A stretch of 35,890 bases of DNA, taken from the IMG/VR virus record IMGVR_UViG_2909303794_000009, one strand, 5' to 3'. The notes under the pieces are model-generated. The model was not told where the DNA came from and did not search any database. It was given only the letters and a program-made list of their open reading frames with translations. Of the stretch, positions 4,663 through 35,890 are shown piece after piece. The stretch comes from a virus (taxonomy: Duplodnaviria; Heunggongvirae; Uroviricota; Caudoviricetes). The first letter of the stretch is position 1, and the number at the start of each line of letters is the position of its first letter. Both the position numbers and the translations under genes were made by a program.

Positions 4663-7600
4663 TCAGCTGATACTGATACCTGCTGTGGATTTTTTCATCA
4701 CCACAACCAGCAGATCGCTGATACTGGTTGTTGGTGTCCAGTTATTCGCTCCTGATGAAGATACGGTGAATGTCAGTGTCAGCGTCCCCTGTCCGGCAGG
4801 CATATCTATAACGGAGGAAAATACGCCCTGAGCATCCGTCGTGGACTGATTAAAAATCTCCTGACCATTGCGGGTCACTCTTAACCGGCAGGTTGAATAC
4901 CAGTATGACTGTTGGTTATTACTGTTGAAATTCTCATGCTTACCACCGCGGAATAACACTGGCGGTATCATGACCTGCCGGTCAAATTTCTGATCATCAC
5001 TGATTCTTACCGTGATGGTGCCACTGGCATAAGTGCTCGTGCGGGGGAAAGACTTGCTGACCGTTTTGACAATATCGCCTTCAATCTGATTGGCTGACAG
5101 TTTCCCCTTAATCTGACAGTTCTCATTAATCGTGACGTTGTTGAGCGTCCCGGAGTTCGCATTCACACTGCCACTGATATCCGCATTTTTAGCGGTCAGC
5201 TTTCCGTCCGGTGTCAGGGAAAAGGCCGGAGGATTGCCGCCGCTGGTAATGGTGGGGGCCGTCAGGCGCTTCAGGAACACTTCATTCATGAATATCTGAT
5301 CACCCTGACCAACAAACATCGGTTTTGTGTTGCCATTCGCAGGATTAATCATCGCAATCCTGTCTGCCGCCAGCAGCACCTGACTCTGCATTCCTGCTGG
5401 CGTATTCTCAATACCGGCACCGATACCCGCAATATAAAGGCGTCCGTCCTTCATCTGTTGCAGCTTCACAGCCCACATGCTGTTCAGATTATTATTTGTA
5501 TCAACCTGAACCTTCTGTATCTGCTGGATCGCTGCACTCTGGTCTTCCAGTTTCTTATTGACGGTCTGTGTGATTTCATTGCTGACATCCGTAATGGACG
5601 TCCTGATTTCAGCCAGGTCAGGCGCAAGCTGACCGTTATCAATCTGCGTCCACAGCTCCTGAGCCAGATGGGTTTTCCCTATCTCGCCTTTGAAAAAATC
5701 CAGATAGCCTGATGCATCATCACTCGGCTGACCGACAGCCTCCACGAATGCCGATTTGCCAACGGTGTTCACACTGCGAACGTAAAAATAATAATCATGG
5801 CCCGGTTTGATATTGATACTGGCGGCTATCCAGTACAGTGCCGTACCAAGATAACGCGCGCTGGTTTCAACCTGCCTGATATCCGCAATCCGTTTTTCCG
5901 AGAACCAGAACTCAAACTGTACCGTCGGGTCATAAACCGCAAGATGCGGCGTGGCGGTTATCTGAAAATAGCCCGGCGTCAGCTCAATCCGCGACGGCGC
6001 TGCCGGTGCGGCAATCCGGAACGATACCGACGCCGGATCGCCCTGCTGCCCCCACGCATTTACTGCCCGGACTGTCAGCCTGTAGTTCCCCAGAGCCAGT
6101 TGTGTGAAGCGGTAAGTGGTTTCCGTCGTCCGGGCCGTGCTGACCAGCCGCTCACGGCCGTCATCCGCTGCCACGGTCAGGCGAAGCAGGAAGCTCACGC
6201 CCTTCACCACCTTCGGCGTGTCCCAGCGGGCCAGCACCTGGTATTCCCCGCTGTCTGCGGTGACTTCTGCGGTCAGGTGCTGCACCGCTGGCGGCGTGAC
6301 ACCATTTACCGTGCCGCTCTGGTCGCCGTCAAAGTGCGCCCCGTTATCCACGATGGCCTCTTTTTCCGGTACATGCTGCACGGCGGTGATGGCATACGTG
6401 CCGTCGTCGTTCTCACGGATACTCACGCAGCGGAACAGGCGCTGGCGCAACGTCGGCAGCTTCAGCCCCCATACGCTGTATTCAGCAACGCCGTCAGGAA
6501 CACGGCTCACTTTCACCTTCACGCCGTCGGTGACGGACTGAACCTCCACGCTGACCGGACTCCCCTGCCCGTCAACCAGGCTTATCAGCGTGGTGCCGGA
6601 AGATGGCAGCGTGATTTCACGGTCGAGCGTCAGCGTCCGGGTCTGGCTGTTTACCGCCAGCACGCGCCCGCCGGTGCGGATACCGGCATAGTCATCATCG
6701 CAGATTTCAATGACATCGCCCGGTACATGGCGAAGCCCTTCGGCACCCACGCTGAAGTCCACGGTCTGCGTTTCCAGCAGTTCTGTTTTAATCAGCCACA
6801 GCCCGGCGCGGTGTGCCTGCCCCCGGCTGGTACAGCCAAAAGCATCCATCTTCGTGACGTTACGACCGTAACGGGCAATGGCCTGCGTGTCCTCCACAAG
6901 CTCTGTCGCCGTCTCCCAGCCGTTATTCGGGTCAATCCAGTTCACCTCAACGGCATTATGGCGGTCCTTCAGGGCGCTGAAGCTGTAGCGGAACGGCGCA
7001 CCATCATCCGGCATCACCACATTACTGCGGTTATAGGTCCACACCTTATCCGACGGTCGGTCCTGCACGAACGTCAGCGTCTGCCCGTTCCATACCGGCA
7101 TACAGCGCATCGCAGAGCAGAAATCACTGAGCACATCCCACGCCTTGCGCTGTGTGGTCAGGTACGCATTACAGGTGATGCGCGGCTCCGTGCCGCCAAA
7201 ACCGTCCGGCACCGACTGATCGCAATGCTGGCCGATGACATACAGCGCCCATTTGTCCACATCCGCCGCACCAAGACGTTTCCCCATGCCGTAGCGCGGA
7301 TGGGTCAGCATATCCCACAGACACCAGGCCATGTTGTTGCTGTATGCTGGCTTAAACGTTCCGTCCCAGATACCGCTGTATTGCCGCGTCTGCGGGTTAT
7401 AGTTCGACGGCACCTGCAGAATGCGCCCACGCAGATGATAATTACGACTCACCTGCTGACTGCCGAACTGCTCCGAGTCCACCTGTACGCCGACCAGTGC
7501 CGTGTTCGGGTAGCACTGTTTCACATCGATGATTTCGGTATATGACGACCAGAGCGTTTTGTTCTGCAGCTGGTCTGTGGTGCTGTCCGGCGTCATCCTG

Positions 7601-8145
7601 CGCATCCGGATATTAAACGGGCGCGGCGGCAGGTTATCCACCACCACCGAGGCCAGATACTGTGAGGTGGTTTTTCCCTTAATGGTGATGTCTTTTTCCG
7701 TCACCCAGCCACCGTTACGCTGTATCTGAACCAGCAGGCGGACTTCCGACGGATTCCGGTCCCCCTTTGAGGTGGTTTCCACCAGTGCCTGCACACCGAA
7801 AGTAAAGCGCAGACGATCGATGTTTGCCGACGTGATGGTGCGGGTGATCGGCGTGTCGTATTTCACTTCCGTACCCAGCACCGTCTCAGAGCCGGAGGAT
7901 TCAAATCCCTCCGGCGGTGTCTGCTCCTGCTCACCGGCCCGGAACACCACCGTGACGCCGGAGATGTTGGTATTACCTTCACTGTCCAGCACCGGCGTAC
8001 TGTTCAGCAGCACGCTTTTTAATCCATCCACCGGACCTTCAATCGGCCCTTCGCTGATGGCATCAATCACACTCAGCAACTGCGTGGATTTGAGGTTGTC
8101 CTTCGCTTCGCGCGGGGTATGCCCCTTACTGCTGCCTTTACCCAT
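4663..8145 (-). CDS. J: Tail tip host-specificity protein J (central tail fiber), 1160 aa
   Basis: N-terminus [34 protein letters not shown]... is lambda J-like; the C-terminal ~150 aa diverge from lambda J. Confidence 0.9.
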
Positions 8146-8205
8146 TCCTCACGCTCCATAAACGACAAAACCGCCCGCAGGCGGTTTCACATAAAACATT
8201 TTGCA

Positions 8206-24832: not shown

Positions 24833-25090
24833 CTACTTCGCTTTTGCTTCCGCTCGCTTACGCCGGCGCTCTTCTTTCCTCTCGGCTTTTGCCATGTCCA
24901 TGAATGCCTGCATGATCGAGTTCCGCATCATGTAGCTAACAAAGTGATGATTGACACAGCCGTTGAGGCGCAGCTGCTCGCCAAACTCATCCACCGAGGC
25001 CAATGCTTCCATCATGCCCTTCTCACCTTTCATGAACTCTGAGAAGTCACGCCCCGCTCTGGAGGCGCATTCAATGACACGATCACTCAT
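24833..25090 (-). CDS. Hypothetical protein (85 aa), translationally coupled to the upstream KilA-N frame
   Basis: ATG overlaps the TGA of the preceding frame (ATGA); Lys/Arg/Glu-rich C-terminus; no family recognised. Confidence 0.4.
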   Translation of the reverse strand: MSDRVIECASRAGRDFSEFMKGEKGMMEALASVDEFGEQLRLNGCVNHHFVSYMMRNSIMQAFMDMAKAERKEERRRKRAEAKAK

Positions 25091-25583
25091 CCCGGAAGCC
25101 CGGGGATCGTAATCTGCAGCTGGTTAGCCAGGGAGTTAATCTCAGCGACCAACACTGGCTTCGTATAGCGCCATGCCGCCAGCCCTTGTCCGCAGAAGCT
25201 CGCCATATCTTTTTTCTGATCAAACTCATGACACTTCATATTGAGCTGTGCACTTAAGCTGTTGCGATGCTGAAGTTCTCCGGTGAAGTAGTCATCCAGG
25301 ACTTTATAGGCTGCATATTTAAATCCGGGGTTTAGCCATGCTGCATAATCATAAGCAACAAACTTCCCGCCATATGTTCCACCGTGTACACCGCGCTCAG
25401 TAAAAACACAGATTCGTGGTTTTTCTCCAGCTCGGCTAAGAACTCTTTGGTCTGCTTGTTTCGCAGGTAGTGGTACGGAGATTCAGATTCACTTTTACCA
25501 CTGGCTTTCCACATATCAGTGAGGCAGATCATGCCATCTTCACCGATACGAATTGGTTGATTGAAGAGGGTTAATGATTTCAT
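25087..25583 (-). pseudogene. KilA-N domain protein gene split by a frameshift
   Basis: Frame A (25332..25583) MKSLTLFNQPIRIGEDGMICLTDMWKASGK... continues in a second frame as …ERGVHGGTYGGKFVAYDYAAWLNPGFKYAAYKVLDDYF… (KilA-N signature); frames switch at an A5/T5 run near 25412-25416. Confidence 0.55.
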
Positions 25584-25699
25584 AGCGTGTACCTACTCTT
25601 TGAAATGAACCTTTGCCGCACAGGAAACCAGCCCACCGAGGCTCGCCAGCACTAACTGGTATCTTCAAAGGCCCATTCCAAAGGGGCAGGTTCGGTGTA

Positions 25700-25772
25700 A
25701 AAAAAACATGCGTTGCGGTACGCATTTATTGCAAAAAAGCCCCGCATCACGAGGCTCATTAAATGGACTTTG
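25700..25772 (-). terminator. Two tandem putative intrinsic terminators downstream of Rz
   Basis: Minus strand: GCCTCG-TGATG-CGGGGC followed by TTTTTTG, then ATGCGT-ACCGCA-ACGCAT followed by GTTTTTTTT. Confidence 0.45.
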
Positions 25773-25787
25773 TGATTTGCAAAAAAA

Positions 25788-26225
25788 TTATTTCAGGCAT
25801 TGCGTCCTGATGTACTCCTGCAGGTAGTTAACCTGCGCGGTTATCCTGTCGATTCCACTTCGGAGACGGTAATAATTGAGTTCAGCATCTGCTGTAAGTC
25901 TTGGGCTTTCTCCATCGCCCATGCTGCTGGCTCCGGTCTTTGACTTTGCACATGAGGCGGCGACTTGCAGCCGCTTACGCCCAGCAGAAACATCATCACG
26001 GAGACTTTCGATAGTCGCGTTAGCATCAGCAAGCTCCTTTGTATATCTGGCGTCGAGTTCTGCTACGTCACGTTGACGCTTCTGCATGTCAGCGATGATG
26101 GATGTGGCTTTGTCGCGCTGGGCTTTGTAGGCGATGGCGTTATCACGGTAATGATTAACAGCCCATAACAGGCAGACGATGATGCAGATAACCAGAGCGG
26201 AGATAATCGCGGTGACTCTGCTCAT
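25788..26225 (-). CDS. Rz: Spanin inner-membrane subunit Rz (145 aa)
   Basis: [30 protein letters not shown]... N-terminal TM helix plus coiled coil; lambda Rz-like; 4-nt overlap with R. Confidence 0.85.
25841..26032 (-). CDS. Rz1: Spanin outer-membrane lipoprotein Rz1, embedded in the +1 frame of Rz
   Basis: 63-aa nested ORF with signal/lipobox …[10 protein letters not shown] followed by a Pro-containing segment; same embedded architecture as lambda Rz/Rz1. Confidence 0.7.
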
Positions 26226-26698
26226 GCCTCAATCTCTCTGACCGTTCCGCCTGCTTCTTTGAATTTTGAAATCAGACTGTCAGCCTTATGCTCGAACTGA
26301 CCATAACCAGCGCCCGGCAATGAAGCCCAGATATTGCTGCAACGGTCGATTGCCTGACGAATATCACCGCGGTCAATCATCGGTAAAGCGCCACGCTCTT
26401 TAATCTGTTGCAATGCCACAGCGTCCTGGCTTTTCGGAGAGAAGTCTTTCAGGCCAAGCTGCTTACGATAGGCATCCCACCAACGGGAAAGAAGCTGGTA
26501 ACGTCCGGCTGCTGTTGATTTGAGTTTTGGGTTTAGCGTGACAAGTTTGCGAGGGTGATCGGAGTAATCAGTAAACAGTTCACCACCGACAATAACATCA
26601 TAACCGTGGTTACGTGTCGGTTGTCGCCCGTTATCCGTTCCTTCTGACCATGCAACCATATCCAGGAAAGCTTTACGCTGGGAATTTAGTACCTGCAT
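26222..26698 (-). CDS. R: Endolysin R (lytic transglycosylase, 158 aa)
   Basis: …[73 protein letters not shown]… is near-identical to lambda R as recalled. Confidence 0.9.
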
Positions 26699-26701
26699 AA
26701 A

Positions 26702-27037
26702 TTACTCCTTCGAGCTACCAAACTTGTTACCGATTACTCTCATTGCAGCCCCACGAATAGCATCGACACCGATCAGCCCCACCCCACCACCAATGGCAAC
26801 AGAAAGCGATTTAGGCCATCCGACATACTCAAGCGCGGATGCAAAGGTCAACGTCAGAGCGCCACATAGCAAAATCTCGAGCGTTTTTCGCTTCCAGCCA
26901 CCACCACCGCCAAAATAGGCGATGCGCAAACCAGCCATAACAATCGACATAATCACTGCGCCCAGCGGCGTATCTCCACGCCACCAGCTCTGAAACAACT
27001 CCAGCCAGTCCGGCCAGGTATTTGGGTTATGAGGCAT
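26702..27037 (-). CDS. S: Holin (lambda S family but divergent), ~111 aa from the MPHNPNTW start
   Basis: Three hydrophobic segments (GAVIMSIVMAGLRIAYF, LEILLCGALTLTFASAL, VAIGGGVGLIGVDAI) and a charged C-terminus; loosely alignable to lambda S; GAGGTGA RBS upstream of the ATG at 27037. The ORF track extends to 27133, overlapping the methyltransferase 3' end. Confidence 0.7.
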   Translation of the reverse strand: MPHNPNTWPDWLELFQSWWRGDTPLGAVIMSIVMAGLRIAYFGGGGGWKRKTLEILLCGALTLTFASALEYVGWPKSLSVAIGGGVGLIGVDAIRGAAMRVIGNKFGSSKE

Positions 27038-27113
27038 TTCGTCATCTCTCACCTCGCGATATTTGCGGGTGCTGTGTTGGAAATAAAAAGGCCACGCAAC
27101 GTGGCCACCAGAA

Positions 27114-28166
27114 TTATTTCCCCACCAGTTCACTTACCTCTTTCACCGTCTGATTAAACCGCTCTGACTCAAGTTCAACACCTAACGCCCGACGCCCCAG
27201 CGCCATTGCCGCTTTTATTGTGGAACCGGATCCCATAAAGAAATCAGCAACCAGATCGCCTTGTCGACTACTGGCACTGATTATTTGCCGGAGCATATCC
27301 GCAGGCTTCTCACACGGATGTTTACCCGGGTAGAACTGAACGGGTTTATGCGTCCAGACATCGGTATAAGGCACGGAAACTGATACGGAGAAATAGCGCC
27401 GGAGAGTTTTAAACTCATCCAGCAATTCAGAATATTTGCGATTCAGTGAATCATAAGATGCCACCAGCTGGTGGTGTGGTTGTTCCAGTTGTTGTTCCTG
27501 AAATTTCTCTGCCGCTATACGGGAAAACAGTGCCTGCAACTTCCGGTAGTCAGCCTCATTCGGCAACTGCCACTGACTGGCACCAAACCAGTGGGAAACC
27601 ATATTTTTCTTACCAGTGGCTTCGGCAATCTGTTTTGCCGTTATACCCAGTTCGGCACGAGCATCCCTGAAATACGAAATCAGCGGTGCCATTATGTGCT
27701 GTTTGAGTTGACTTTCTTTTGCCGCATAGCCGTCACTTTTGCCGCGATATGGTCCCTGGTAATGTTCAGCAAACAGAACGCGTTCTGTTGCGGGAAAATA
27801 TGCGCGCAGACTTTCTTTATTACACCCGTTCCATCGTCCGGACGGCTTCGCCCAGATAATATGGTTAAGAACGTTGAAACGTTCACGCATCATGATCTCG
27901 ATATCAGATGCGAGGCGATGTCCACAGAACAGGTAAAGGCTTCCGGCAGGTTTCAGCACCCGCCAGAACTGAGCCAGACAGTGGTCCAGCCACTTCAGGT
28001 AATCTTCGTCCCCTTTCCACTGATTGTCCCAACCGTTGGGTTTCACCTTGAAGTACGGCGGATCGGTAACAATCAGGTCAATGGAATCATCAGGCAGGGA
28101 CTGAATAAAATGCAGGCAATCAGCGTTGATTAAATCAACACTGTTTATTTTCACAGTATTTTTCAT
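27114..28166 (-). CDS. Orphan DNA methyltransferase (N6-adenine/N4-cytosine type, beta-class motif order), 350 aa
   Basis: N-terminal catalytic motif IV DPPY (…IDLIVTDPPYF…) and C-terminal SAM-binding motif I (…DFFMGSGST…); no adjacent restriction endonuclease gene. Confidence 0.85.
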   Translation of the reverse strand: MKNTVKINSVDLINADCLHFIQSLPDDSIDLIVTDPPYFKVKPNGWDNQWKGDEDYLKWLDHCLAQFWRVLKPAGSLYLFCGHRLASDIEIMMRERFNVLNHIIWAKPSGRWNGCNKESLRAYFPATERVLFAEHYQGPYRGKSDGYAAKESQLKQHIMAPLISYFRDARAELGITAKQIAEATGKKNMVSHWFGASQWQLPNEADYRKLQALFSRIAAEKFQEQQLEQPHHQLVASYDSLNRKYSELLDEFKTLRRYFSVSVSVPYTDVWTHKPVQFYPGKHPCEKPADMLRQIISASSRQGDLVADFFMGSGSTIKAAMALGRRALGVELESERFNQTVKEVSELVGK

Positions 28167-28315
28167 GGATCAGTAAGCGTAACTCTGGTAGGCTCACTCT
28201 GCTTTTGCGCTAAAGCAGTGGGCCGTGGTTCGCTTGTGACCAGTAAGCATGAGCGAATGGCTGGCAGGTGCTACCAACACCCACCAGCCGCCCATTTTCA
28301 CAAATTAAAAGCCCT

Positions 28316-28510
28316 TCATTGCTGAAGGCGTCTGTAACAGCCGAACTGGTAATCTGCCAGCCCCGCCATAACCAGCTGGGTCAGTATTAACTGACAGCGT
28401 TCGCGTGAAAGGTATGTGTTTTGTGCAATCTCCCCGACTGTTGCCGGTTTGCCGTTTAATTCATTAAAAACAACTTTCGCCGTTTCTGTCATATCTAGCT
28501 GTTTTAGCAT
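28316..28510 (-). CDS. Small winged-helix DNA-binding protein, FaeA/PapI-like (64 aa)
   Basis: MLKQLDMTETAKVVFNELNGKPATVGEIAQNTYLSRERCQLILTQLVMAGLADYQ… has the small-regulator pattern (…G…T..EIA…..S….R..L..L…G.) seen in PapI/FaeA-type proteins; sits directly upstream of the methyltransferase. Confidence 0.45.
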   Translation of the reverse strand: MLKQLDMTETAKVVFNELNGKPATVGEIAQNTYLSRERCQLILTQLVMAGLADYQFGCYRRLQQ

Positions 28511-28627
28511 GTCTTTTTACCTTCATGGTTAACATGACATACCAATAACTCTTGTCTAAAAAGCCAGCAAGATAAAAAGTCAGTATTCACGACCACCAGC
28601 GTGTTTACCGTACTGCACCAGGTTTAC

Positions 28628-28657
28628 AGGTACAAAAAAACCCGCTCGACGGCGGGT
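28628..28657 (-). terminator. Putative intrinsic terminator (minus-strand orientation) between the porin and the late genes
   Basis: Minus strand ACCCGCC-GTCGA-GCGGGT followed by TTTTTTT. Confidence 0.5.
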
Positions 28658-28699
28658 TTAAGCTGTGTGGCGAAGTAACCACTCTTAACAGCATAACCA

Positions 28700-29084
28700 A
28701 TTTTTTACGTACGTAAACCTCTAAACAATATTTGTGAGAATGATATCGAGTGTTCAAAACACCACCACAATCACATAAGGAAAAATAAACAAATAATCAT
28801 TAAATAATTTCCGACGTTATTTTCAGTGAATTTAAATTAAAGAGATGAATTATAGAACACTTATAAATAACAACCTTTAATATAATTTAGCTACCAAATT
28901 TATTTTCTTTCAGAGAATAGTCATGCACAGCATGCATTAGAAAAAGTTCAGATAAAAATAGAGATCTAGATCACAATTTAAATAAGAATCTAAAACTTAC
29001 ATCTTGAATTAATCACATTGATTAGATGAATATTTGTCGCGCAGGGCATCATTTTTTAATAAATGTTCAAAAAAAGGTCTCACG
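28700..29084 (+). promoter_or_regulatory. AT-rich upstream regulatory region of the porin gene
   Basis: ~380 bp of very low GC with repeated TTTA/ACAT-type motifs (e.g. ACTTACATCTTGAATTAATCACATTGATTAGATG) resembling porin promoter/OmpR-box regions; no -10/-35 assigned. Confidence 0.3.
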
Positions 29085-30167
29085 ATGAAAAAATTAACAG
29101 TGGCAATTTCTGCTGTAGCTGCATCAGTACTGATGGCGATGTCTGCTCAGGCAGCTGAAATTTATAATAAAGACAGTAACAAGCTGGATCTGTACGGGAA
29201 AGTTAATGCTAAGCACTACTTCTCCTCTAATGATGCAGATGATGGTGATACTACTTATGCCCGTCTTGGCTTCAAAGGTGAAACCCAAATCAACGATCAA
29301 CTGACTGGTTTCGGTCAGTGGGAATATGAATTCAAAGGCAACCGCGCTGAATCTCAAGGTTCCTCCAAAGATAAAACCCGTCTTGCCTTCGCTGGCCTGA
29401 AATTCGGTGACTACGGCTCCATCGATTATGGCCGTAACTACGGTGTAGCATACGATATTGGTGCATGGACCGACGTTCTGCCAGAATTCGGTGGCGATAC
29501 CTGGACCCAAACAGATGTATTCATGACTGGTCGCACCACAGGTGTTGCAACTTATCGTAACAACGACTTCTTTGGTCTGGTTGATGGCCTGAACTTTGCA
29601 GCTCAGTATCAGGGCAAAAATGACCGAAATGAAGTAACTGAAGCTAATGGCGATGGTTTCGGTTTCTCAACTACTTATGAGTATGAAGGATTCGGCGTGG
29701 GTGCAACCTATGCTAAATCTGATCGCACTAATAATCAGGTTATCCTCGGTAACAACGGTCTGAATGCTTCTGGTAAAAATGCTGAAGTATGGGCAGCTGG
29801 TCTGAAATATGATGCGAACAACATCTATCTGGCCACCACCTATTCTGAAACCCAGAACATGACTGTTTTTGGTAATAACCATATTGCCAACAAAGCACAA
29901 AACTTCGAAGCTGTTGCACAATATCAGTTCGACTTCGGCCTGCGTCCATCCGTTGCTTACCTGCATTCTAAAGGAAAAGACTTGGGTGTTTGGGGTGATC
30001 AGGACCTGGTTGAATATGTTGATGTAGGTGCAACCTATTACTTCAACAAAAATATGTCCACTTTTGTTGACTACAAAATCAACCTGATTGATAAGAGCGA
30101 TTTCACGAAAGCATCTGGCGTTGCTACCGATGATATCGTTGCTGTAGGTATGGTTTACCAGTTCTAA
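29085..30167 (+). CDS. nmpC: Outer membrane general porin, NmpC/Lc/OmpC-family (360 aa with signal peptide)
   Basis: [40 protein letters not shown]… signal peptide and mature N-terminus, C-terminal …VAVGMVYQF; the ORF track begins 17 codons earlier at an alternative start codon. Confidence 0.85.
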
Positions 30168-30182
30168 TTTGATTACTAAAAG

Positions 30183-30225
30183 ATATGTTGTGGGAGGCTT
30201 TGCCTCCCCAACATATAAGTGGCTC
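30183..30225 (-). terminator. Candidate tR'-like terminator downstream of Q (minus-strand orientation)
   Basis: Minus strand ATATGTTGGGGAGGC-AAA-GCCTCCCACAACATAT followed by CTTTT; located ~130-170 nt downstream of the Q stop, as expected for a short pR' leader. Confidence 0.3.
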
Positions 30226-30304
30226 CCTCAAGCCACTTCCTTTAGAAGCACAACCTTGCTTCTAACTATACAAACCTTCTGTTATATATTACCCTTTATT
30301 TTTG

Positions 30305-30332
30305 GGGGCGCTTCAACGCCCCATTTTTAATA
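30305..30332 (+). terminator. Putative intrinsic terminator of the porin gene
   Basis: Plus strand GGGGCG-CTTCAA-CGCCCC followed by ATTTTTAAT. Confidence 0.45.
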
Positions 30333-30355
30333 ACTTTTAGTAAATAATTGGCGTA

Positions 30356-30739
30356 TTAATTAGAGTTATTAACAACGATATCCATCTCTAACCGGATATC
30401 TAATGCCATTAACATCCCTTCAATTATGCCCTCAGCCTTTTGTAACCTTTTCCCGATATAACCATCAGAGCAGCAATGCTTACCTGCCAGTGACATGAAT
30501 GTCATACCGACTATATAATAATCTACTAATAAATCATGCAAATCGCTGTTGTTCTTTTTCAGACGGGCCATGCACCCGCAAATGATCATCGCGTCATCGT
30601 CACAACATTGCGGGCGAGATTTTACTTTTGAAGGAATTAATCCCTTAAAACCGGCGGCAATGGACGACCAGGTCACATCTTCATGATTATTAGCCGCCCA
30701 CGCTCCCCAACGCTCAAGAACCATCTGAATATCACGCAT
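30356..30739 (-). CDS. Q: Late-gene antiterminator Q, phage 82/QuuD-type (127 aa from [11 protein letters not shown] start)
   Basis: [33 protein letters not shown]… with Cys cluster (…[12 protein letters not shown]…); GGAG RBS 8 nt upstream; unlike lambda Q; the ORF track begins 5 codons earlier. Confidence 0.75.
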
Positions 30740-30821
30740 CAACTTACTCCACAAAAATCAGACCAAAACGCCAATTACAAGCAAAAATCAACAAAACAGT
30801 ATTAGTTGATTGTTATCTCTG

Positions 30822-30962
30822 ACTTCATACTCCTGCTCCTGTCAGGGTTTTGGCGTAACTCTTCAGTATTCGGTAATCGGTCAAAACAGAACCGGGGAAA
30901 CGATATAAGCGCAGACGCCCCCAGCGGTGGCGAAGAAGTTCTGCCATATTAAACTCAAACAT
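30822..30962 (-). CDS. ylcG: Small protein YlcG-like (46 aa), start overlapping the rusA stop
   Basis: Hand-translated: [45 protein letters not shown]; below the ORF-track size cut-off; lies between rusA and Q. Confidence 0.5.
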
Positions 30963-31324
30963 CATTCATTCCCCATTTCGGTGATGGTCAGTTCCAGCCT
31001 CCCACCTTTGGTAACAGGCATCTTCACAACGCGGTAATCAACGACCTGAGCATCATCCAGCCAGAAACCTGCTTTAGTGAGTGCGTCAAAAGCGGCTTTT
31101 TGCAGATTATCCAGGTCACGGCGACGGCGATCCGGCATGTGGCACTCAATGCGGATTTTCACAGGCATAGCCAGGCCGATATCCAGTATTGCGTTTTTAA
31201 TGATTCGGGCGACGTTATCGCGGTATGCCTGCCCCTCTGCGCTGACGTGCGTGCGCCCGCGATTATGGCGGTAATAGCGATTATTGCTCGGAGGCCAGGG
31301 TAATGTGATGCTGTAGGTATTCAC
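30962..31324 (-). CDS. rusA: Holliday-junction resolvase RusA (120 aa)
   Basis: [41 protein letters not shown]… RusA family; nin-region position upstream of Q. Confidence 0.85.
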
Positions 31325-31446
31325 GCCTTAATAACCCCCTCTTTCAGCCAGATAACCTGTGTTCTCGCCATACCTTCCAGCGCGCATTCTTTTGCATATG
31401 CAGCATCGACTTGCTTGGCATGCCCTTTACCGGCAATCTTCTGTAT
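31321..31446 (-). pseudogene. 3' remnant of a ybcO-like nin-region gene
   Basis: Only ~41 in-frame codons (…[40 protein letters not shown]) with the stop overlapping the rusA start; an in-frame TAG lies immediately upstream and no plausible start is present. Confidence 0.4.
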
Positions 31447-31530
31447 GCGCTAAACCTAGATAGAATCCACTCTGTGCACATTGAAGCCCGCTCTATGCTT
31501 CCTTTCAGGTATTGAAGGGATTGAGATGGG

Positions 31531-31872
31531 CTAAGCATTATTGGCCTCCTGCATCAGGAGAAAGACAATCATGGCGGCGCGGAGAGGTCTGGTATCAAAT
31601 ATTGGGCTTACGCCTTTTGCATCCACACACCATTCAGTTAACTGGTCTAAGATAGAAATCCTGTATTTCTCAATAATCGGCCATGAAGCGCTCGGATCAT
31701 TGCAGTAGTCAGGCAAATGATTTAATGGCTCAAAAGTTGTATCAGCATTTCCGTAATACCATTTGTTGGTGTTATTCCCTGATGTTTCCGGTTTACTTGC
31801 CCAAAGGCCTTTAAAAATTATGTCTCCTACCATTCTGTTAATTTCAAAATCACTTAACTGTGAATAATCCAT
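31531..31872 (-). CDS. Hypothetical nin-region phage protein (113 aa from MDYSQL start)
   Basis: ORF-track frame 31531..31914; GAGGAA RBS fits the second ATG ([17 protein letters not shown]…); no family recognised; ~110 bp from the IS left end. Confidence 0.45.
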
Positions 31873-32037
31873 TGTCATTTCCTCGCACGATATCTTAGCC
31901 ACCGGATATCCCACAGGTGAGCTGTGTAATTGAAGGTTTTTACGTCAGATTCTTTTGGGATTGGCTTGCGTTTATTTCTGGAGTGAACCGCCCCGGGAAT
32001 CCTGGAGACTAAACTCCCTGAGAAAGAGGTAAACAGG

Positions 32038-32364
32038 ATGACTAAAAATACACGTTTTTCCCCCGAGGTCCGTCAACGGGCAGTTCGTATGGTTCTGGAA
32101 AGTCAGGGCGAATATGACTCTCAATGGGCGGCAATTTGTTCCATTGCCCCAAAGATTGGCTGTACACCAGAGACTCTGCGTGTGTGGGTTCGTCAGCATG
32201 AGCGGGATACCGGGAGTGGTGATGGTGGACTCACCACCGCTGAACGTCAGCGTCTGAAAGAGCTGGAACGTGAAAATCGTGAACTGCGCCGCAGTAACGA
32301 TATCCTTCGCCAGGCTTCCGCTTATTTTGCGAAGGCGGAGTTCGACCGCCTCTGGAAAAAATAA
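32038..32364 (+). CDS. IS3-family transposase OrfA (HTH, 108 aa)
   Basis: [59 protein letters not shown]… recognised as IS629-group OrfA; ends in an A-rich run (A AAA AAT AA) overlapping the orfB start. Confidence 0.85.
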
Positions 32365-33251
32365 TGCCGCTGCTGGATAAGCTGCGTGAGCAGTACGGGG
32401 TCGGACCGGTATGCAGTGAACTGCATATTGCCCCGTCAACGTATTACCACTGTCAGCAACAGCGACATCATCCTGATAAACGCAGTGCCCGTGCTCAGCG
32501 CGATGACTGGCTGAAGAGAGAGATACAGCGCGTATACGATGAAAATCATCAGGTGTACGGTGTGCGTAAAGTCTGGCGCCAGTTGTTACGCGAAGGTATC
32601 AGGGTGGCCAGATGTACAGTGGCGCGCCTCATGGCGGTTATGGGACTTGCCGGTGTTCTCCGGGGTAAAAAGGTCCGTACTACCGTCAGCCGGAAAGCCG
32701 TTTCCGCAGGCGACCGCGTAAACCGTCAGTTCGTGGCAGAACGTCCTGACCAGCTGTGGGTGGCTGATTTTACTTACGTCAGCACATGGCAGGGCTTCGT
32801 CTATGTGGCGTTCATCATTGATGTGTTTGCCGGATGTATCGTGGGGTGGCGAGTCTCATCGTCTATGGAAACGACATTCGTGCTGGATGCACTGGAGCAG
32901 GCGTTGTGGGCCCGTCGGCCGTCCGGCACAGTCCATCACAGTGATAAAGGTTCTCAGTATGTATCACTGGCCTATACGGAGCGACTAAAAGAAGCAAAAC
33001 TGCTGGCATCAACAGGGAGTACAGGTGACTCGTATGACAACGCGATGGCGGAGAGCATCAATGGTCTTTACAAAGCGGAGGTAATACACCGTAAGAGCTG
33101 GAAAAACCGTGCAGAAGTGGAACTGGCCACACTCACGTGGGTGGACTGGTATAACAATCGACGATTGCTGGGAAGGCTGGGTCATATCCCTCCGGCAGAA
33201 GCAGAAAAAGCTTATTATGCTTCCATCAGAAACGATGATCTGGCAGCCTGA
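32364..33251 (+). CDS. IS3-family transposase OrfB (DDE integrase core, 295 aa)
   Basis: …LWVADFTYVSTWQGFVYVAFIIDVFAGCIVGW…HSDKGSQYVS…DNAMAESINGLYKAEVI… DDE-type catalytic core. Confidence 0.85.
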   Translation: MPLLDKLREQYGVGPVCSELHIAPSTYYHCQQQRHHPDKRSARAQRDDWLKREIQRVYDENHQVYGVRKVWRQLLREGIRVARCTVARLMAVMGLAGVLRGKKVRTTVSRKAVSAGDRVNRQFVAERPDQLWVADFTYVSTWQGFVYVAFIIDVFAGCIVGWRVSSSMETTFVLDALEQALWARRPSGTVHHSDKGSQYVSLAYTERLKEAKLLASTGSTGDSYDNAMAESINGLYKAEVIHRKSWKNRAEVELATLTWVDWYNNRRLLGRLGHIPPAEAEKAYYASIRNDDLAA

Positions 33252-33295
33252 GTTCACAGATAAAACACTCTCCAGGAAAACCGGGGCGGTTCATA

Positions 33296-33423
33296 TTCCC
33301 TCCTCCGGTTAAGGATGGAAGAGAGTATCTGTTCCACGAATCAGCGGTAAAGGTTGACTTAAATCGACCAGTAACAGGTAGCCTTTTGAAGAGGATCAGA
33401 AATGGGAAGAAGGCGAAGTCATG
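33296..33423 (+). pseudogene. xis: Excisionase xis, 5'-truncated remnant (C-terminal ~42 codons only)
   Basis: Frame immediately after the IS right end reads FPPPVKDGREYLFHESAVKVDLNRPVTGSLLKRIRNGKKAKS*, the lambda Xis C-terminus, with its stop overlapping the int start; the N-terminal ~30 codons are absent. Confidence 0.7.
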
Positions 33424-34472
33424 AGCGCCGGGATTTACCCCCTAACCTTTATATAAGAAACAATGGATATTACTGCTACAGGGACCCAAGGACGGGTAAA
33501 GAGTTTGGATTAGGCCGAGACAGGCGAATCGCAATCACTGAAGCTATACAGGCCAACATTGAGTTATTTTCAGGACACAAACACAAGCCTCTGACAGCGA
33601 GAATCAACAGTGATAATTCCGTTACGTTACATTCATGGCTTGATCGCTACGAAAAAATCCTGGCCAGCAGAGGAATCAAGCAGAAGACACTCATAAATTA
33701 CATGAGCAAAATTAAAGCAATAAGGAGGGGTCTGCCTGATGCTCCACTTGAAGACATCACCACAAAAGAAATTGCGGCAATGCTCAATGGATACATAGAC
33801 GAGGGCAAGGCGGCATCAGCCAAGTTAATCAGATCAACACTGAGCGATGCATTCCGAGAGGCTATAGCTGAAGGCCATATAACAACAAACCCGGTCGCAG
33901 CCACTCGCGCTGCAAAATCAGAGGTAAGGAGATCAAGACTTACGGCTGACGAATACCTGAAAATTTATCAAGCAGCAGAATCATCACCATGTTGGCTTAG
34001 ACTTGCAATGGAACTGGCTGTTGTTACCGGGCAGCGAGTTGGTGATTTATGCGAAATGAAGTGGTCTGATATCGTAGATGGATATCTTTATGTCGAGCAA
34101 AGCAAAACAGGCGTAAAAATTGCCATCCCAACAACATTGCATGTTGATGCTCTCGGGATATCAATGAAGGAAACACTTGATAAATGCAAAAAGATTCTTG
34201 GCGGAGAAACCATAATTGCATCTACTCGTCGTGAACCGCTTTCATCCGGCACAGTATCAAGGTATTTTATGCGCGCACGAAAAGCATCAGGTCTCTCCTT
34301 CGAAGGGGATCCGCCAACCTTTCACGAGTTGCGCAGTTTGTCTGCAAGACTCTATGAGAAGCAGATAAGCGATAAATTTGCTCAACATCTTCTCGGGCAT
34401 AAGTCGGACACCATGGCATCACAGTATCGTGATGACAGAGGCAGGGAGTGGGACAAAATTGAAATCAAATAA
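33402..34472 (+). CDS. int: Integrase (tyrosine recombinase), lambda Int (356 aa)
   Basis: MGRRRSHERRDLPPNLYIRNNGYYCYRDPRTGKEFGLGRDRRIAITEAIQANIELF… essentially identical to lambda Int as recalled; followed by the att site. Confidence 0.95.
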   Translation: MGRRRSHERRDLPPNLYIRNNGYYCYRDPRTGKEFGLGRDRRIAITEAIQANIELFSGHKHKPLTARINSDNSVTLHSWLDRYEKILASRGIKQKTLINYMSKIKAIRRGLPDAPLEDITTKEIAAMLNGYIDEGKAASAKLIRSTLSDAFREAIAEGHITTNPVAATRAAKSEVRRSRLTADEYLKIYQAAESSPCWLRLAMELAVVTGQRVGDLCEMKWSDIVDGYLYVEQSKTGVKIAIPTTLHVDALGISMKETLDKCKKILGGETIIASTRREPLSSGTVSRYFMRARKASGLSFEGDPPTFHELRSLSARLYEKQISDKFAQHLLGHKSDTMASQYRDDRGREWDKIEIK

Positions 34473-34575
34473 TGATTTTATTTTGACTGATAGTGACCTG
34501 TTCGTTGCAACAAATTGATAAGCAATGCTTTTTTATAATGCCAACTTAGTATAAAAAAGCAGGCTTCAACGGATT
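34473..34575. other. Prophage attachment site attL: P' arm plus 15-bp core GCTTTTTTATACTAA (core ~34546..34560) joined to the bacterial arm
   Basis: Plus strand …CAAATTGATAAGCAATGCTTTTTTATAATGCCAAC-TTAGTATAAAAAAGC-AGGCTTCAACGG…; the reverse complement reads bacterial arm, then core, then lambda P' arm. Confidence 0.85.
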
Positions 34576-34606
34576 CATTTTTCTATTTCATAGCCCGGAG
34601 CAACCT

Positions 34607-35890
34607 GTGAACACATTTTCAGTTTCCCGTCTGGCGCTGGCATTGGCTTTTGGCGTGACGCTGACCGCCTGTAGCTCAACCCCGCCCGATCAACGTCCTT
34701 CTGATCAAACCGCGCCTGGTACCTCTTCTCGCCCGATTCTGTCGGCAAAAGAAGCGCAGAATTTCGATGCTCAACACTATTTTGCATCCCTGACACCAGG
34801 TGCTGCAGCGTGGAATCCTTCCCCGATTACCCTGCCTGCGCAACCTGACTTTGTTGTCGGCCCGGCGGGCACTCAAGGTGTAACGCATACCACGATTCAG
34901 GCGGCGGTAGATGCGGCAATTATCAAGCGTACCAACAAGCGCCAGTATATTGCCGTGATGCCTGGTGAGTATCAGGGAACGGTATATGTCCCTGCCGCTC
35001 CGGGTGGAATTACTCTGTACGGTACAGGTGAAAAACCGATTGATGTGAAGATTGGGCTTTCCCTTGATGGTGGCATGAGCCCTGCCGACTGGCGTCACGA
35101 CGTCAACCCGCGCGGCAAATATATGCCAGGTAAACCAGCGTGGTATATGTACGATAGCTGCCAGAGCAAACGCAGCGACAGTATCGGTGTTCTCTGCTCT
35201 GCGGTCTTCTGGTCACAAAACAATGGCCTGCAACTGCAAAATCTGACCATCGAAAACACGCTGGGCGATAGCGTAGATGCAGGTAACCATCCGGCGGTGG
35301 CACTGCGTACTGATGGTGACCAGGTACAGATTAACAACGTTAACATTCTCGGTCGTCAGAACACCTTCTTTGTCACCAACAGCGGTGTGCAGAACCGTCT
35401 GGAAACGAATCGTCAGCCGCGTACGCTGGTGACCAACAGCTACATTGAAGGGGATGTGGATATCGTTTCTGGTCGCGGCGCAGTGGTGTTCGATAACACC
35501 GAATTCCGCGTGGTGAACTCACGTACTCAGCAAGAAGCGTATGTGTTTGCACCGGCTACGCTGTCCAACATTTACTACGGTTTCCTCGCCGTAAACAGCC
35601 GTTTCAATGCTTTCGGTGATGGTGTGGCGCAACTGGGCCGCTCGCTGGATGTTGATGCCAATACCAACGGTCAGGTGGTGATCCGTGATAGCGCCATCAA
35701 CGAAGGTTTTAACACGGCTAAACCGTGGGCCGATGCGGTGATCTCTAATCGTCCGTTTGCGGGTAATACCGGCAGCGTAGATGATAACGACGAAATACAG
35801 CGCAATCTGAATGACACTAACTACAACCGCATGTGGGAATACAATAACCGCGGCGTGGGTAGTAAAGTGGTTGCAGAGGCGAAGAAGTAA
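34607..35890 (+). CDS. ybhC: Host outer-membrane lipoprotein YbhC (pectinesterase-like, 427 aa)
   Basis: (V/M)NTFSVSRLALALAFGVTLTAC lipoprotein signal; right-handed beta-helix-like repeats; recognised as the chromosomal gene flanking the lambda attachment site on the gal side. Confidence 0.85.
   Translation: MNTFSVSRLALALAFGVTLTACSSTPPDQRPSDQTAPGTSSRPILSAKEAQNFDAQHYFASLTPGAAAWNPSPITLPAQPDFVVGPAGTQGVTHTTIQAAVDAAIIKRTNKRQYIAVMPGEYQGTVYVPAAPGGITLYGTGEKPIDVKIGLSLDGGMSPADWRHDVNPRGKYMPGKPAWYMYDSCQSKRSDSIGVLCSAVFWSQNNGLQLQNLTIENTLGDSVDAGNHPAVALRTDGDQVQINNVNILGRQNTFFVTNSGVQNRLETNRQPRTLVTNSYIEGDVDIVSGRGAVVFDNTEFRVVNSRTQQEAYVFAPATLSNIYYGFLAVNSRFNAFGDGVAQLGRSLDVDANTNGQVVIRDSAINEGFNTAKPWADAVISNRPFAGNTGSVDDNDEIQRNLNDTNYNRMWEYNNRGVGSKVVAEAKK

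Follow-up and report, generated by a model that had tools for sequence, protein, structure and literature searches.

How are the lysis genes of a prophage kept silent when its antiterminator gene Q is retained but its repressor is not? This question is raised by a 35,890-nt prophage stretch from IMG/VR (record IMGVR_UViG_2909303794_000009), referred to in full as the window. The original prediction answered it with a late promoter and terminators placed directly after Q, followed by a long antisense transcript. Our analysis suggests that the region is quite probably a module controlling the late genes of a lambda-like prophage that sits at attB-lambda and has lost its early region in an IS-associated deletion. 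The genes and remnants from Q towards the host junction are as follows.

30356..30739, minus strand: antiterminator gene Q, QuuD/933W/82 family (Pfam PF06530), 127 aa, open
30825..31914, minus strand: nin region remaining upstream of Q, with ninX (31531-31914), rusA (30962-31324) and ylcG (30825-30965)
31875..31983, minus strand: ninE 3' remnant, abutted by the left end of an IS
31984..33293, plus strand: complete IS3-family insertion sequence, 1310 bp, replacing the prophage early region
33296..33403, plus strand: xis C-terminal remnant adjoining the IS right end, followed by int and ybhC

The assignment of Q to the 82/QuuD type was readily confirmed: residues 1-118 of its 127 match PF06530 (Pfam search, E 1e-53), making it a full-length family member, and the protein is 98% identical to K-12 QuuD and 77% identical to 933W Q. 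Upstream, the nin remnant (NinX, E 1e-16; RusA, E 4e-22) keeps a ninX-rusA-ylcG order common to the window, phage ev243 and the K-12 prophage DLP12. Window positions 31983..28636 form an unbroken alignment with positions 4818..8168 of ev243 (locus L002) at 97.6% identity, and the location of the ev243 NinE gene (4750-4926 in L002) is the basis for calling window 31875..31983 a ninE remnant.

The element abutting this remnant carries 25-nt inverted repeats (31984-32008 and 33269-33293, 88% complementary), rve and HTH_21 domains, and orfA and orfB joined by a -1 frameshift signal (an ALIL pseudoknot, Rfam E 1e-31), as expected of the IS3 family. Plasmids carry 100% identical copies of it, and its ends presumably resemble those of the IS629/IS1203 group. 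It links ninE, at about codon 23, to a C-terminal xis remnant whose translation, FPPPVKDGREYLFHESAVKVDLNRPVTGSLLKRIRN, we take to match lambda Xis, and it replaces the entire xis-to-ninE interval, so that the proposed deletion of the early region is borne out. No target-site duplication is present at its flanks (gag and tat), as would be expected if the IS had taken part in a deletion or recombination and not simply inserted. Beyond the remnant, a lambda-type int is intact by its domain matches (33402-34472), with ybhC further out; tail and head genes are also still present in the prophage. Q itself is intact, but pR, N and all else that lay upstream of ninE are gone, and no repressor-like gene was found among the ORFs scanned, the canonical immunity position being deleted. 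A promoter reading out of the IS left end had been suggested as a driver of Q, a suggestion left without sequence support by a consensus scan, which found no minus-strand promoter-like site of 9/12 or better reading from the IS towards Q in 33400-31900.

To locate the late promoter, we compared the window with annotated phages carrying a Q of the same family. The relevant elements lie not beside Q but on the far side of the neighbouring porin gene.

28690..28717, minus strand: predicted late promoter pR', with -35 TTTACG (28717-28712), a 16-nt spacer and -10 TATGCT (28695-28690), assigned by homology to 933W pR'
28660..28685, minus strand: predicted late-transcript start, +1 near 28683-28685, with the extended -10-like element TGgTTACTT
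28634..28659, minus strand: predicted tR', the first intrinsic terminator after pR', with an 8-pair stem, a 6-nt loop and U7

Window positions 28718-28629 are 80% identical over 90 nt to the 933W features annotated as pR' (TTTACG-16-TATCAT), qut and terminator, and the -35, -10, initial transcribed sequence and first hairpin terminator all have homologues in 933W and Sakai Sp5. In Sakai Sp5 the primary start lies 258 nt upstream of the tR' 3' end (PMC7547250); counted back from the end of the second terminator's U run, this start falls 7 nt after the TATCAT -10. The 19-nt transcribed core AGAGTGGTTACTTCGCCAC occurs a single time in the window (28685-28667), and the core AAGAGTGGTTAC occurs once per scanned PF06530-Q locus, except for ev087 (L006), which has no match. 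Furthermore, six phages or prophages encoding PF06530 Q proteins with 45-98% identity to the window Q share the block running from the -10 to the terminator (TAAGAGTGGTTAC...). In 933W it comes straight after Q; in DLP12, mEp460, phiP27 and WGPS2 various inserts place it 1.3-1.7 kb further on. In a Stx2c phage whose Q is of the lambda type (PF03589), the promoter and initial transcribed sequence at this spot are unrelated, but the terminator and downstream genes are the same. Among the IMG/VR loci with this Q allele and sufficient downstream sequence, the core lies ~1650 nt past the Q stop in every case (79/79).

These comparisons indicate that pR'/qut most likely resides beyond the porin gene, at 28717-28660, some 1.65 kb from the Q stop and not immediately downstream of it; Q and pR' are usually adjacent but need not be, since Q works as a diffusible protein. 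The assignment rests on homology because consensus promoter scans fail to separate pR' from background, its hexamers being weak (8/12 consensus). The element TGgTTACTT, at about +3 to +11, is a predicted sigma70-dependent pause and Q-loading site, such that both a promoter and a -10-like pause element (qut) are recognizable at the sequence level. Compared by published positions with the phage 82 pR', the window agrees only in part: taking 28685 as +1, it has the fitting GCC at +15-17, U at +25 and a base other than G at +26, but its -10-like hexamer is poorer than that described for 82. A palindrome in the pR' region, TTTACGTACGTAAA (28717-28704), differs between Q subtypes, reading GCGTACGC or GGAATTCC in the promoter spacers of mEp460, phiP27 and WGPS2, and may be a candidate Q-binding element.

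The stem of the first downstream terminator (28659-28638, with its U7 run at 28640-28634) is invariant across seven phages while its loop varies, and its 933W counterpart is annotated as a terminator. This hairpin had been noted before, at ~28628-28657, as a second terminator; the hairpin and U7 are indeed there, but they come first after pR'. A Trp-leader match over tR' is attributable to chance (Rfam E 0.44, 23 bits against a cut-off of 41), and besides it the Rfam scan of 25000-34700 returned the IS frameshift pseudoknot alone.

What, then, occupies the space between Q and its promoter?

29085..30167, plus strand: intact porin gene (Lc/NmpC/OmpD type), oriented against the late genes (Porin_1, E 1e-152)
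28725..29084, plus strand: AT-rich porin control region, 23-27% G+C in a composition profile
30176..30322, no strand assigned: four hairpins separating the convergent Q and porin genes, interpreted as a two-way terminator or insulator

The 199-nt stretch that follows Q is highly structured (-71.9 kcal/mol, z -7.45, with 0/200 shuffles as good), comprising hairpins at 30322-30305, 30265-30242, 30238-30217 and 30216-30183 that individually fold at -10 to -23 kcal/mol. The last of these has 15 pairs and one bulge (-22.7 kcal/mol) but a minus-strand tail of only CUUUUAG, whereas on the plus strand the hairpin at 30305-30322 is followed by the T-rich tail ATTTTTAATA, forming the best terminator of the Q-proximal region and one that points in the porin direction. 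Conservation of the four-hairpin region reaches 95% across PA-2, DLP12 and four plaque-forming phages, and the region is best read as a block of terminators that closes the porin unit where this converges with Q.

The porin gene is homologous to PA-2 lc and DLP12 nmpC, and in K-12 an active promoter has been found in the 199 bp upstream of nmpC (PMC11677980). No porin is present at the same position, between Q and the late genes, in 933W or ev087. The unit therefore shows the features of a moron, namely absence from relatives, a promoter region and terminator of its own, and a different composition. The porin gene, its AT-rich promoter region and the four hairpins would together constitute an independent, oppositely oriented moron inserted between Q and pR', in which the hairpins would block porin transcripts from entering Q, and Q-direction transcripts from entering the porin gene.

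The original prediction had instead placed pR'/qut within 30170-30355 and tR' at 30216-30183, with Q-modified polymerase running antisense through the porin gene to meet 28659-28634 as a second barrier. This region does lie directly after Q, as pR' does in lambda, 933W and ev087; it is hairpin-rich and well conserved, including the hairpin proposed at ~30183-30225, and its best consensus match, GTAATA-16-TATAGT, scores the same as pR', although many chance sites do so as well. However, neither the consensus scan nor the homology comparison found specific evidence for pR'/qut in 30170-30355: homology to the pR'/qut of other PF06530-Q phages is found at 28717-28634 and not here, and the region is altogether absent from 933W-type phages and mEp460. 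The short tail of the proposed tR' and the porin-facing direction of the best terminator further argue against this arrangement, and inserting an extra terminator into the K-12 quuD-nmpC spacer made no measurable difference (PMC11677980), which points to little transcription through that spacer. We consider this arrangement highly improbable, the antisense passage through the porin gene being unneeded when the pR' homologue sits beyond it, and reporter or RACE work aimed at 30170-30355 would probably miss the late promoter. The ev087 promoter (TTGCTG-17-TAATGT, an AAA start and TGtTAGAAT) does follow its Q directly, and that Q is 88% identical to the window Q over 120 residues; kinship between this type of promoter and the Q-proximal region was considered and rejected, a single 9-mer in common being within chance.

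The same region might alternatively hold a Q-independent promoter producing a short structured RNA that spans hairpins 2-4 in ~80 nt and runs antisense to the 3' untranslated region of the porin gene, with pR' still at 28.7 kb. Conservation of TATAGT/TATATAGT, the three hairpins downstream with a short U run at the end, and the higher conservation of the region (95%) than of the neighbouring porin gene (~87-90%) are consistent with such an RNA; its -35 element is poor, it has no Rfam match (scan of 25000-34700), and terminator function or recent common descent explain the conservation equally well. We judge such an RNA very unlikely, and retain the reading of the hairpins as the terminator block of the porin unit.

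Downstream of pR' and tR', the late operon continues with two genes and a second terminator-like hairpin before the lysis cassette.

28316..28510, minus strand: first late ORF, 64 aa, weakly winged-helix-like (TrmB, E 0.004, below the Pfam cut-off)
27114..28166, minus strand: DNA methyltransferase gene (N6_N4_Mtase, Pfam E 1e-41)
27085..27106, minus strand: second terminator-like hairpin, GGCCACGTTGCGTGGCC then TTTTTATTT, between the methyltransferase stop (27114) and the holin ATG (27037)
25788..27037, minus strand: lysis cassette with holin (26702-27037), endolysin (26222-26698), Rz (25788-26225) and embedded Rz1 (25841-26032), all open

The lysis cassette had been described as intact, and the reading frames of all these genes, Rz1 included, are open. 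Pfam matches were obtained in the cassette for Phage_holin_3_1 (6e-27), Phage_lysis (2e-35) and Rz1 (1e-19); the endolysin has no Pfam match, and equals in length an NH-21 gene annotated in RefSeq as glycoside hydrolase family 24, at a locus that aligns to the window at 98.5%. The cassette is 92.8% identical in DNA to that of mEp460. The first late ORF occupies a position common to mEp460, phiP27, WGPS2 and a Stx2c phage, and the methyltransferase module is conserved in the first three of these.

Two intrinsic-terminator-like hairpins thus stand between pR' and the lysis genes (28659-28634 and 27106-27085). The second, which had previously been overlooked, heads the terminator scan listing (27106-27090 plus U5), has six G-C pairs, the most of any minus-strand site, and recurs unchanged in plaque-forming mEp460 and in the NH-21 prophage. 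The homologous first hairpin of Sakai lies within a 258-nt RNA, which is also made from a plasmid with only the native PR' and StxS region (PMC7547250); a tR'-type terminator may therefore leak without Q. If tR' were leaky by design, a constitutive pR' would steadily express the winged-helix-like ORF and the methyltransferase, leaving 27106-27085 as the real gate to the holin gene. We regard this possibility as doubtful though conceivable; if true, the late operon would have two tiers, with part of its "late" region behaving as cargo expressed in the lysogen. The Sakai/933W RNA ends at a second terminator and its 3' part is the small RNA StxS; a StxS homologue (the 74-nt 3' part with the second terminator) is absent here, the 933W homology ending at 28629 and 933W positions 3011-3228 (L005) being unmatched.

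Combined, these elements chart a model for the silence of the lysis genes. Transcription would begin at pR', as in Sakai, where pR' is constitutively active and its transcript is terminated during lysogeny (PMC7547250). The transcript would start with TGgTTACTT, which would hold sigma70-RNA polymerase in a promoter-proximal pause and let Q load. Without Q, it would stop ~50 nt on, at tR' (28659-28634), while any transcript reading through would pass the winged-helix-like ORF and the methyltransferase gene and meet the second terminator just before the holin gene. Q is probably present at a very low level and the lysis genes are therefore probably off, their silence following from termination of pR' transcripts and from a Q without its natural promoter. 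The same switch logic operates in lambda and phage 82, where a constitutive pR' is combined with a sigma70-dependent promoter-proximal pause for Q loading and a terminator read through under Q (PMC4914094, PMC5001585). Lambda Q (PF03589) belongs to another family than the window Q (PF06530). The terminated late RNA of lambda is ~194 nt long, and its window counterpart would be ~50 nt.

Basal expression of the cassette might also come mainly from host-controlled promoters upstream of pR' rather than from Q, modelled on an RpoE-dependent start that in DLP12 is reported to precede the pR' core by about 350 nt. RpoE and Hha have been cited as regulators of the DLP12 lysis operon, with a fragment from -121 to +650 around the start cloned (PMC7918800), and mapping by the forward primer puts the DLP12 start near position 5375 of its locus (L009), equivalent to about window 29036. 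Transcripts from such a promoter must still pass tR' and the post-methyltransferase terminator, and the K-12 TCACT at the -10, as we infer its position, reads CCCTG in the window. This alternative is unlikely as the main source of expression; it is compatible with the termination model, in which pR' transcripts would stop before the lysis genes for want of Q.

In essence, the locus is a well-known late-gene switch, the DLP12/PA-2 module, carried by a defective lambda-like prophage. In DLP12 (qsr') of K-12, arranged quuD - nmpC - essD/rrrD/rzpD, the same four-hairpin spacer, an opposite-strand porin and the pR' block past the porin are found, and repressor and early region are likewise missing. 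A repressor-less lysis load had been flagged as potentially lethal and worth scrutiny; the lack of a repressor stands, but is not unusual. Likewise, the idea that terminators keep the genes silent follows textbook logic, with Q cut off from pR and N and terminators before the lysis genes, and it was the architecture that had been mis-mapped. DLP12 differs in that IS5 interrupts nmpC, the terminator ends in U5CC instead of U7, and pR' leads directly to a different holin gene (essD) without the winged-helix-like ORF or methyltransferase. It also lies elsewhere, at NC_000913.3 564755-586056 and not beside ybhC, its integration site being argU. The DLP12 rusA gene, a little upstream of Q, stays silent until IS2 or IS10 inserts ahead of it (PMC1636454), and the lysis operon is reported to be controlled by the prophage's Q-type antiterminator, along with RpoE and Hha (PMC7918800). 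Silent lysis cassettes under such an antiterminator are thus already documented, and no new question is opened by the present one.

A similar order, from Q through hairpins, porin and pR' core to the lysis genes, is found in the PA-2 lc region (GenBank J02580), ev243, ev099, 2G7b and 434B; in the plaque-forming ev243, ev099 and 2G7b, tR' is followed by S, R and Rz. Its occurrence in viable phages indicates that the architecture is functional and needs no special explanation. These PA-2-type plaque-forming relatives keep cI, cro, N, O and P, unlike the window prophage with its lost early region. In mEp460, phiP27 and Stx2a_WGPS2, whose Q proteins are only 45-48% identical to the window Q, the same module of pR'-tR', small ORF and methyltransferase is found (92.8% identity in mEp460), and in mEp460 it continues as in the window through an identical pre-holin terminator to the holin gene. 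In these three, Q and pR' lie 1.3-1.6 kb apart around unrelated inserts, none of them porins, whereas the 933W pR' overlaps the end of Q without an insert. Q and its promoter have therefore been split repeatedly by different inserted genes, at least four unrelated inserts being seen.

The module from Q to tR' is present at 80% coverage or more in 2348/5426 complete E. coli genomes. Searches for the late promoter of this module, widespread among E. coli prophages, should be directed past the porin gene and not beside Q, and the separation of Q from pR' should be useful in annotating late promoters, including those driving Shiga toxin genes. In the 1986 PA-2 record, a CRP site is marked over what is here read as the transcribed core of pR'.

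By homology, the late promoter pR' of this prophage lies at 28717-28690, and not beside Q (30170-30355), where the original prediction had put it together with qut. In the 933W record, features annotated as pR', qut and terminator follow Q without a gap, and side-by-side reading showed this stretch to be homologous to the window sequence ending at 28634 in the hairpin previously taken for a second terminator, which we read as tR'. The promoter block is TTTACG-16-TATGCT in the window (gttaAGAGTGGTTACTTCGCCACACAGCTTAAACCCGCCgtcgaGCGGGTTTTTTTG) and TTTACG-16-TATCAT in 933W (gataAGAGTGGTTACATTGCCACGCAGTCGAACCCGCCgatgcGCGGGTTTTTTTG), with 80% identity over 90 nt in a local BLAST comparison, and ~300 records of Stx phages have a match in this interval, in several cases with an annotated promoter and terminator. 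For the Sakai Stx2 prophage Sp5, dRNA-seq and Term-seq put 258 nt between the start at pR' and the 3' end of tR' (PMC7547250); the same distance, measured upstream from the second terminator's U-run in Sp5, leads to an A, 7 nt after TATCAT. The late transcript of the window is accordingly placed, by homology, as starting at 28683-28685, within a 19-nt transcribed core (28685-28667) that occurs once in the window.

Features of the window
left 23 kb, minus strand: head and tail genes, including Nu1
25725-25708: further hairpin with a U8 run, after Rz
27106-27085, minus strand: second terminator-like hairpin, GGCCACGTTGCGTGGCC plus UUUUUAUUU
28659-28634: terminator read as tR'
29085-30167, plus strand: porin gene, convergent with Q
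30356-30739, minus strand: Q
31984-33293: complete IS3-family element, 1310 bp, between int and the nin region
33402-34472: lambda-type integrase gene (int), Phage_integrase and Arm-DNA-bind_1 domains
right end: ybhC

The 1986 GenBank record of phage PA-2 (L004, J02580) marks a CRP-binding site at 1730-1750, which falls exactly on the pR' initial transcribed core as read here (AAGAGTGGTTAC at 1727-1738).

We aligned the pR' block across seven loci (the window, DLP12, 933W, mEp460, phiP27, WGPS2 and an Stx2c phage), and found that the segment running from the -10 element to the end of the initial transcribed sequence is conserved in 6/7, all of which encode PF06530 Q proteins 45-98% identical to the window Q. 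The exception, the Stx2c phage, has a lambda-type Q (PF03589) and, in the same place, an unrelated promoter and initial transcribed sequence, while sharing the terminator and the downstream ORF-methyltransferase genes. Such tracking of the Q family is the pattern that would be expected if the site is a Q-specific late promoter. pR' follows Q at zero distance in 933W and at 1.3-1.7 kb in the window, DLP12, mEp460, WGPS2 and phiP27, the intervening DNA being a porin gene (DLP12, window), reverse-strand ORFs (mEp460, WGPS2) or a T5orf172-domain ORF (phiP27). Every one of the 79 IMG/VR loci that carry this Q allele and extend far enough downstream has the core ~1650 nt after the Q stop. While the transcribed core is constant, the promoter-spacer palindrome, which overlaps the -35 element, differs by Q subtype, suggesting that it is a candidate Q-binding element.

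Promoter-spacer palindromes by locus
window, 28704-28717: TTTACGTACGTAAA
933W (L005), 2923-2936: TTTACGATCGTAAA
mEp460 and WGPS2 (L007, L096): GCGTACGC
phiP27 (L095): GGAATTCC

The leader next to Q is indeed rich in hairpins: its 199 nt fold at -71.9 kcal/mol, compared with -41.6 ± 4.1 for shuffles (z -7.45), and form four hairpins, each stable alone. On the plus strand, the hairpin at 30305-30322, with ATTTTTAATA after it, is predicted to terminate the porin mRNA well; for transcripts leaving Q on the minus strand, the long hairpin at 30216-30183, with CUUUUAG after it, would be a modest terminator. PA-2, DLP12 and four plaque-forming phages share this region at 95% identity, and 933W-type phages and mEp460 lack it; together with the porin and its control region of 23-27% G+C, it apparently makes up a moron that was inserted between Q and pR'. 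A separate promoter here, GTAATA-16-TATAGT, is possible, but all that speaks for it is a consensus match of a kind typical of chance. In K-12, nmpC has an active promoter, and no effect could be measured when a further terminator was placed in the nmpC-quuD interval (PMC11677980). The DLP12 start that is cited as RpoE-dependent maps by primer arithmetic to ~29036 in the window (L009 ~5375); its likely -10, in our own reading, is TCACT in K-12 and CCCTG in the window, and this promoter may not be conserved here.

All sequence features of the original prediction are present, close to where it had put them, including the terminator at 28659-28634, with an 8-bp stem and U7. Downstream of tR' come a 64-aa winged-helix-like ORF, which is open (TrmB E 0.004, below the Pfam cut-off), and then the methyltransferase; the methyltransferase, holin, Rz and Rz1 belong to the expected families and are all open. 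The intact endolysin gave no Pfam match, and has the length of the NH-21 gene annotated by RefSeq as glycoside hydrolase family 24, the NH-21 locus being 98.5% identical to the window across the endolysin region. The strong terminator-like hairpin at 27106-27085 (7 pairs, including 6 G-C, followed by UUUUUAUUU) sits 8 nt beyond the stop codon of the methyltransferase and 48 nt short of the ATG of the holin, and is identical in plaque-forming mEp460 and the NH-21 prophage. Among the IMG/VR loci (L014-L093, ~1700 nt after Q), DLP12-type copies have a U5CC tail in tR' instead of U7, 39/79 have GCTGG instead of GCGGG in its 3' arm, creating a stem mismatch, and the window's strong, 933W-like form occurs in only 1/79. 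Downstream of Rz (25087-25583, minus strand), an antirepressor-like gene seems to have been split in two, leaving an 83-aa KilA-N N-terminal fragment and a distinct ORF of 50 aa with an ORF11CD3 domain.

With ybhC and a lambda-type int at its right end and head and tail genes at its left, the window is a lambda-like prophage at the lambda attachment site. The IS3-family element has 25-nt inverted repeats and an ALIL frameshift pseudoknot, and plasmids carry 100% identical copies. On its right it is flanked by coding sequence for the C-terminal part of Xis, and on its left by ninE from ~codon 23, since window 31983..28636 aligns unbroken to phage ev243 (97.6%). The flanks (gag / tat) show no target-site duplication, and therefore the N-terminal part of xis through the ninE start was lost in an IS-associated deletion; between these points ev243 carries rexA, cI, cro, O, P, ren and ninB. 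No repressor-like gene was found among the small ORFs scanned with Pfam. Only the xis remnant separates the right end of the IS from the intact int, which begins 108 bp downstream (33269-33402).

Q itself is intact, a complete protein of the PF06530 family (E 1e-53). Since both pR and N have been lost, we infer that it would be made at a very low level. A promoter reading out of the left end of the IS had been proposed as a source, but no promoter-like site of 9/12 or better reads from the IS towards Q; in DLP12, the rusA gene immediately before Q stays silent except where IS2 or IS10 has inserted upstream (PMC1636454). In relatives, pR' is described as constitutive, with transcripts that end during lysogeny (PMC7547250), and the Q of phage 82, which loads during a sigma70-dependent pause, suppresses terminators (PMC4914094, PMC5001585). 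In DLP12, the lysis operon reportedly responds to its Q-type antiterminator, RpoE and Hha (PMC7918800). The window's tR' may be leaky, because the Sakai 258-nt RNA spans its homologue and is also made from a plasmid with only the native PR' and StxS region (PMC7547250), in which case the terminator before the holin (27106-27085) would matter more. The proposal that terminators keep the lysis genes silent without a repressor is partly confirmed in its observations and holds in spirit, but not in its map.

Inside Q, a near-consensus sigma70 promoter-like site on the plus strand (30490-30519; GTGACA-18-TATAAT, 11/12), antisense to the gene, recalls lambda paQ; it has CATAAT in K-12 and ev243 and is unconserved in the Q genes of 933W, ev087 and mEp460. 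The PF06530 Q proteins of mEp460 (L007 1621-1962) and WGPS2 (L096 521-862) weakly match Sigma70_ECF, the model for ECF sigma factors (E 1e-4 and 8e-4, residues ~45-102), a hint of a helix-turn-helix resembling that of sigma region 4.

The module combines the arrangement of DLP12 (qsr') and PA-2 lc with the late-operon head found in mEp460, phiP27 and some Stx phages, and nothing in the region lies outside known lambdoid biology; a Q-to-tR' query matched 2348/5426 complete E. coli genomes and 35 phage records at at least 80% coverage. The late region is mosaic, resembling DLP12/ev243 as far as the pR'-tR' block and mEp460 from there on. The two alignments overlap at 28690-28636, such that the joint between nin-Q-porin and ORF-methyltransferase-lysis DNA falls inside the conserved block, which suggests that the block may serve as a recombination point between modules. 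In 933W, just after the second terminator, a 71-bp stretch (L005 3229-3299) is 77% identical to window 27215-27145, the 3' end of the methyltransferase gene, and looks like a remnant of the same module.
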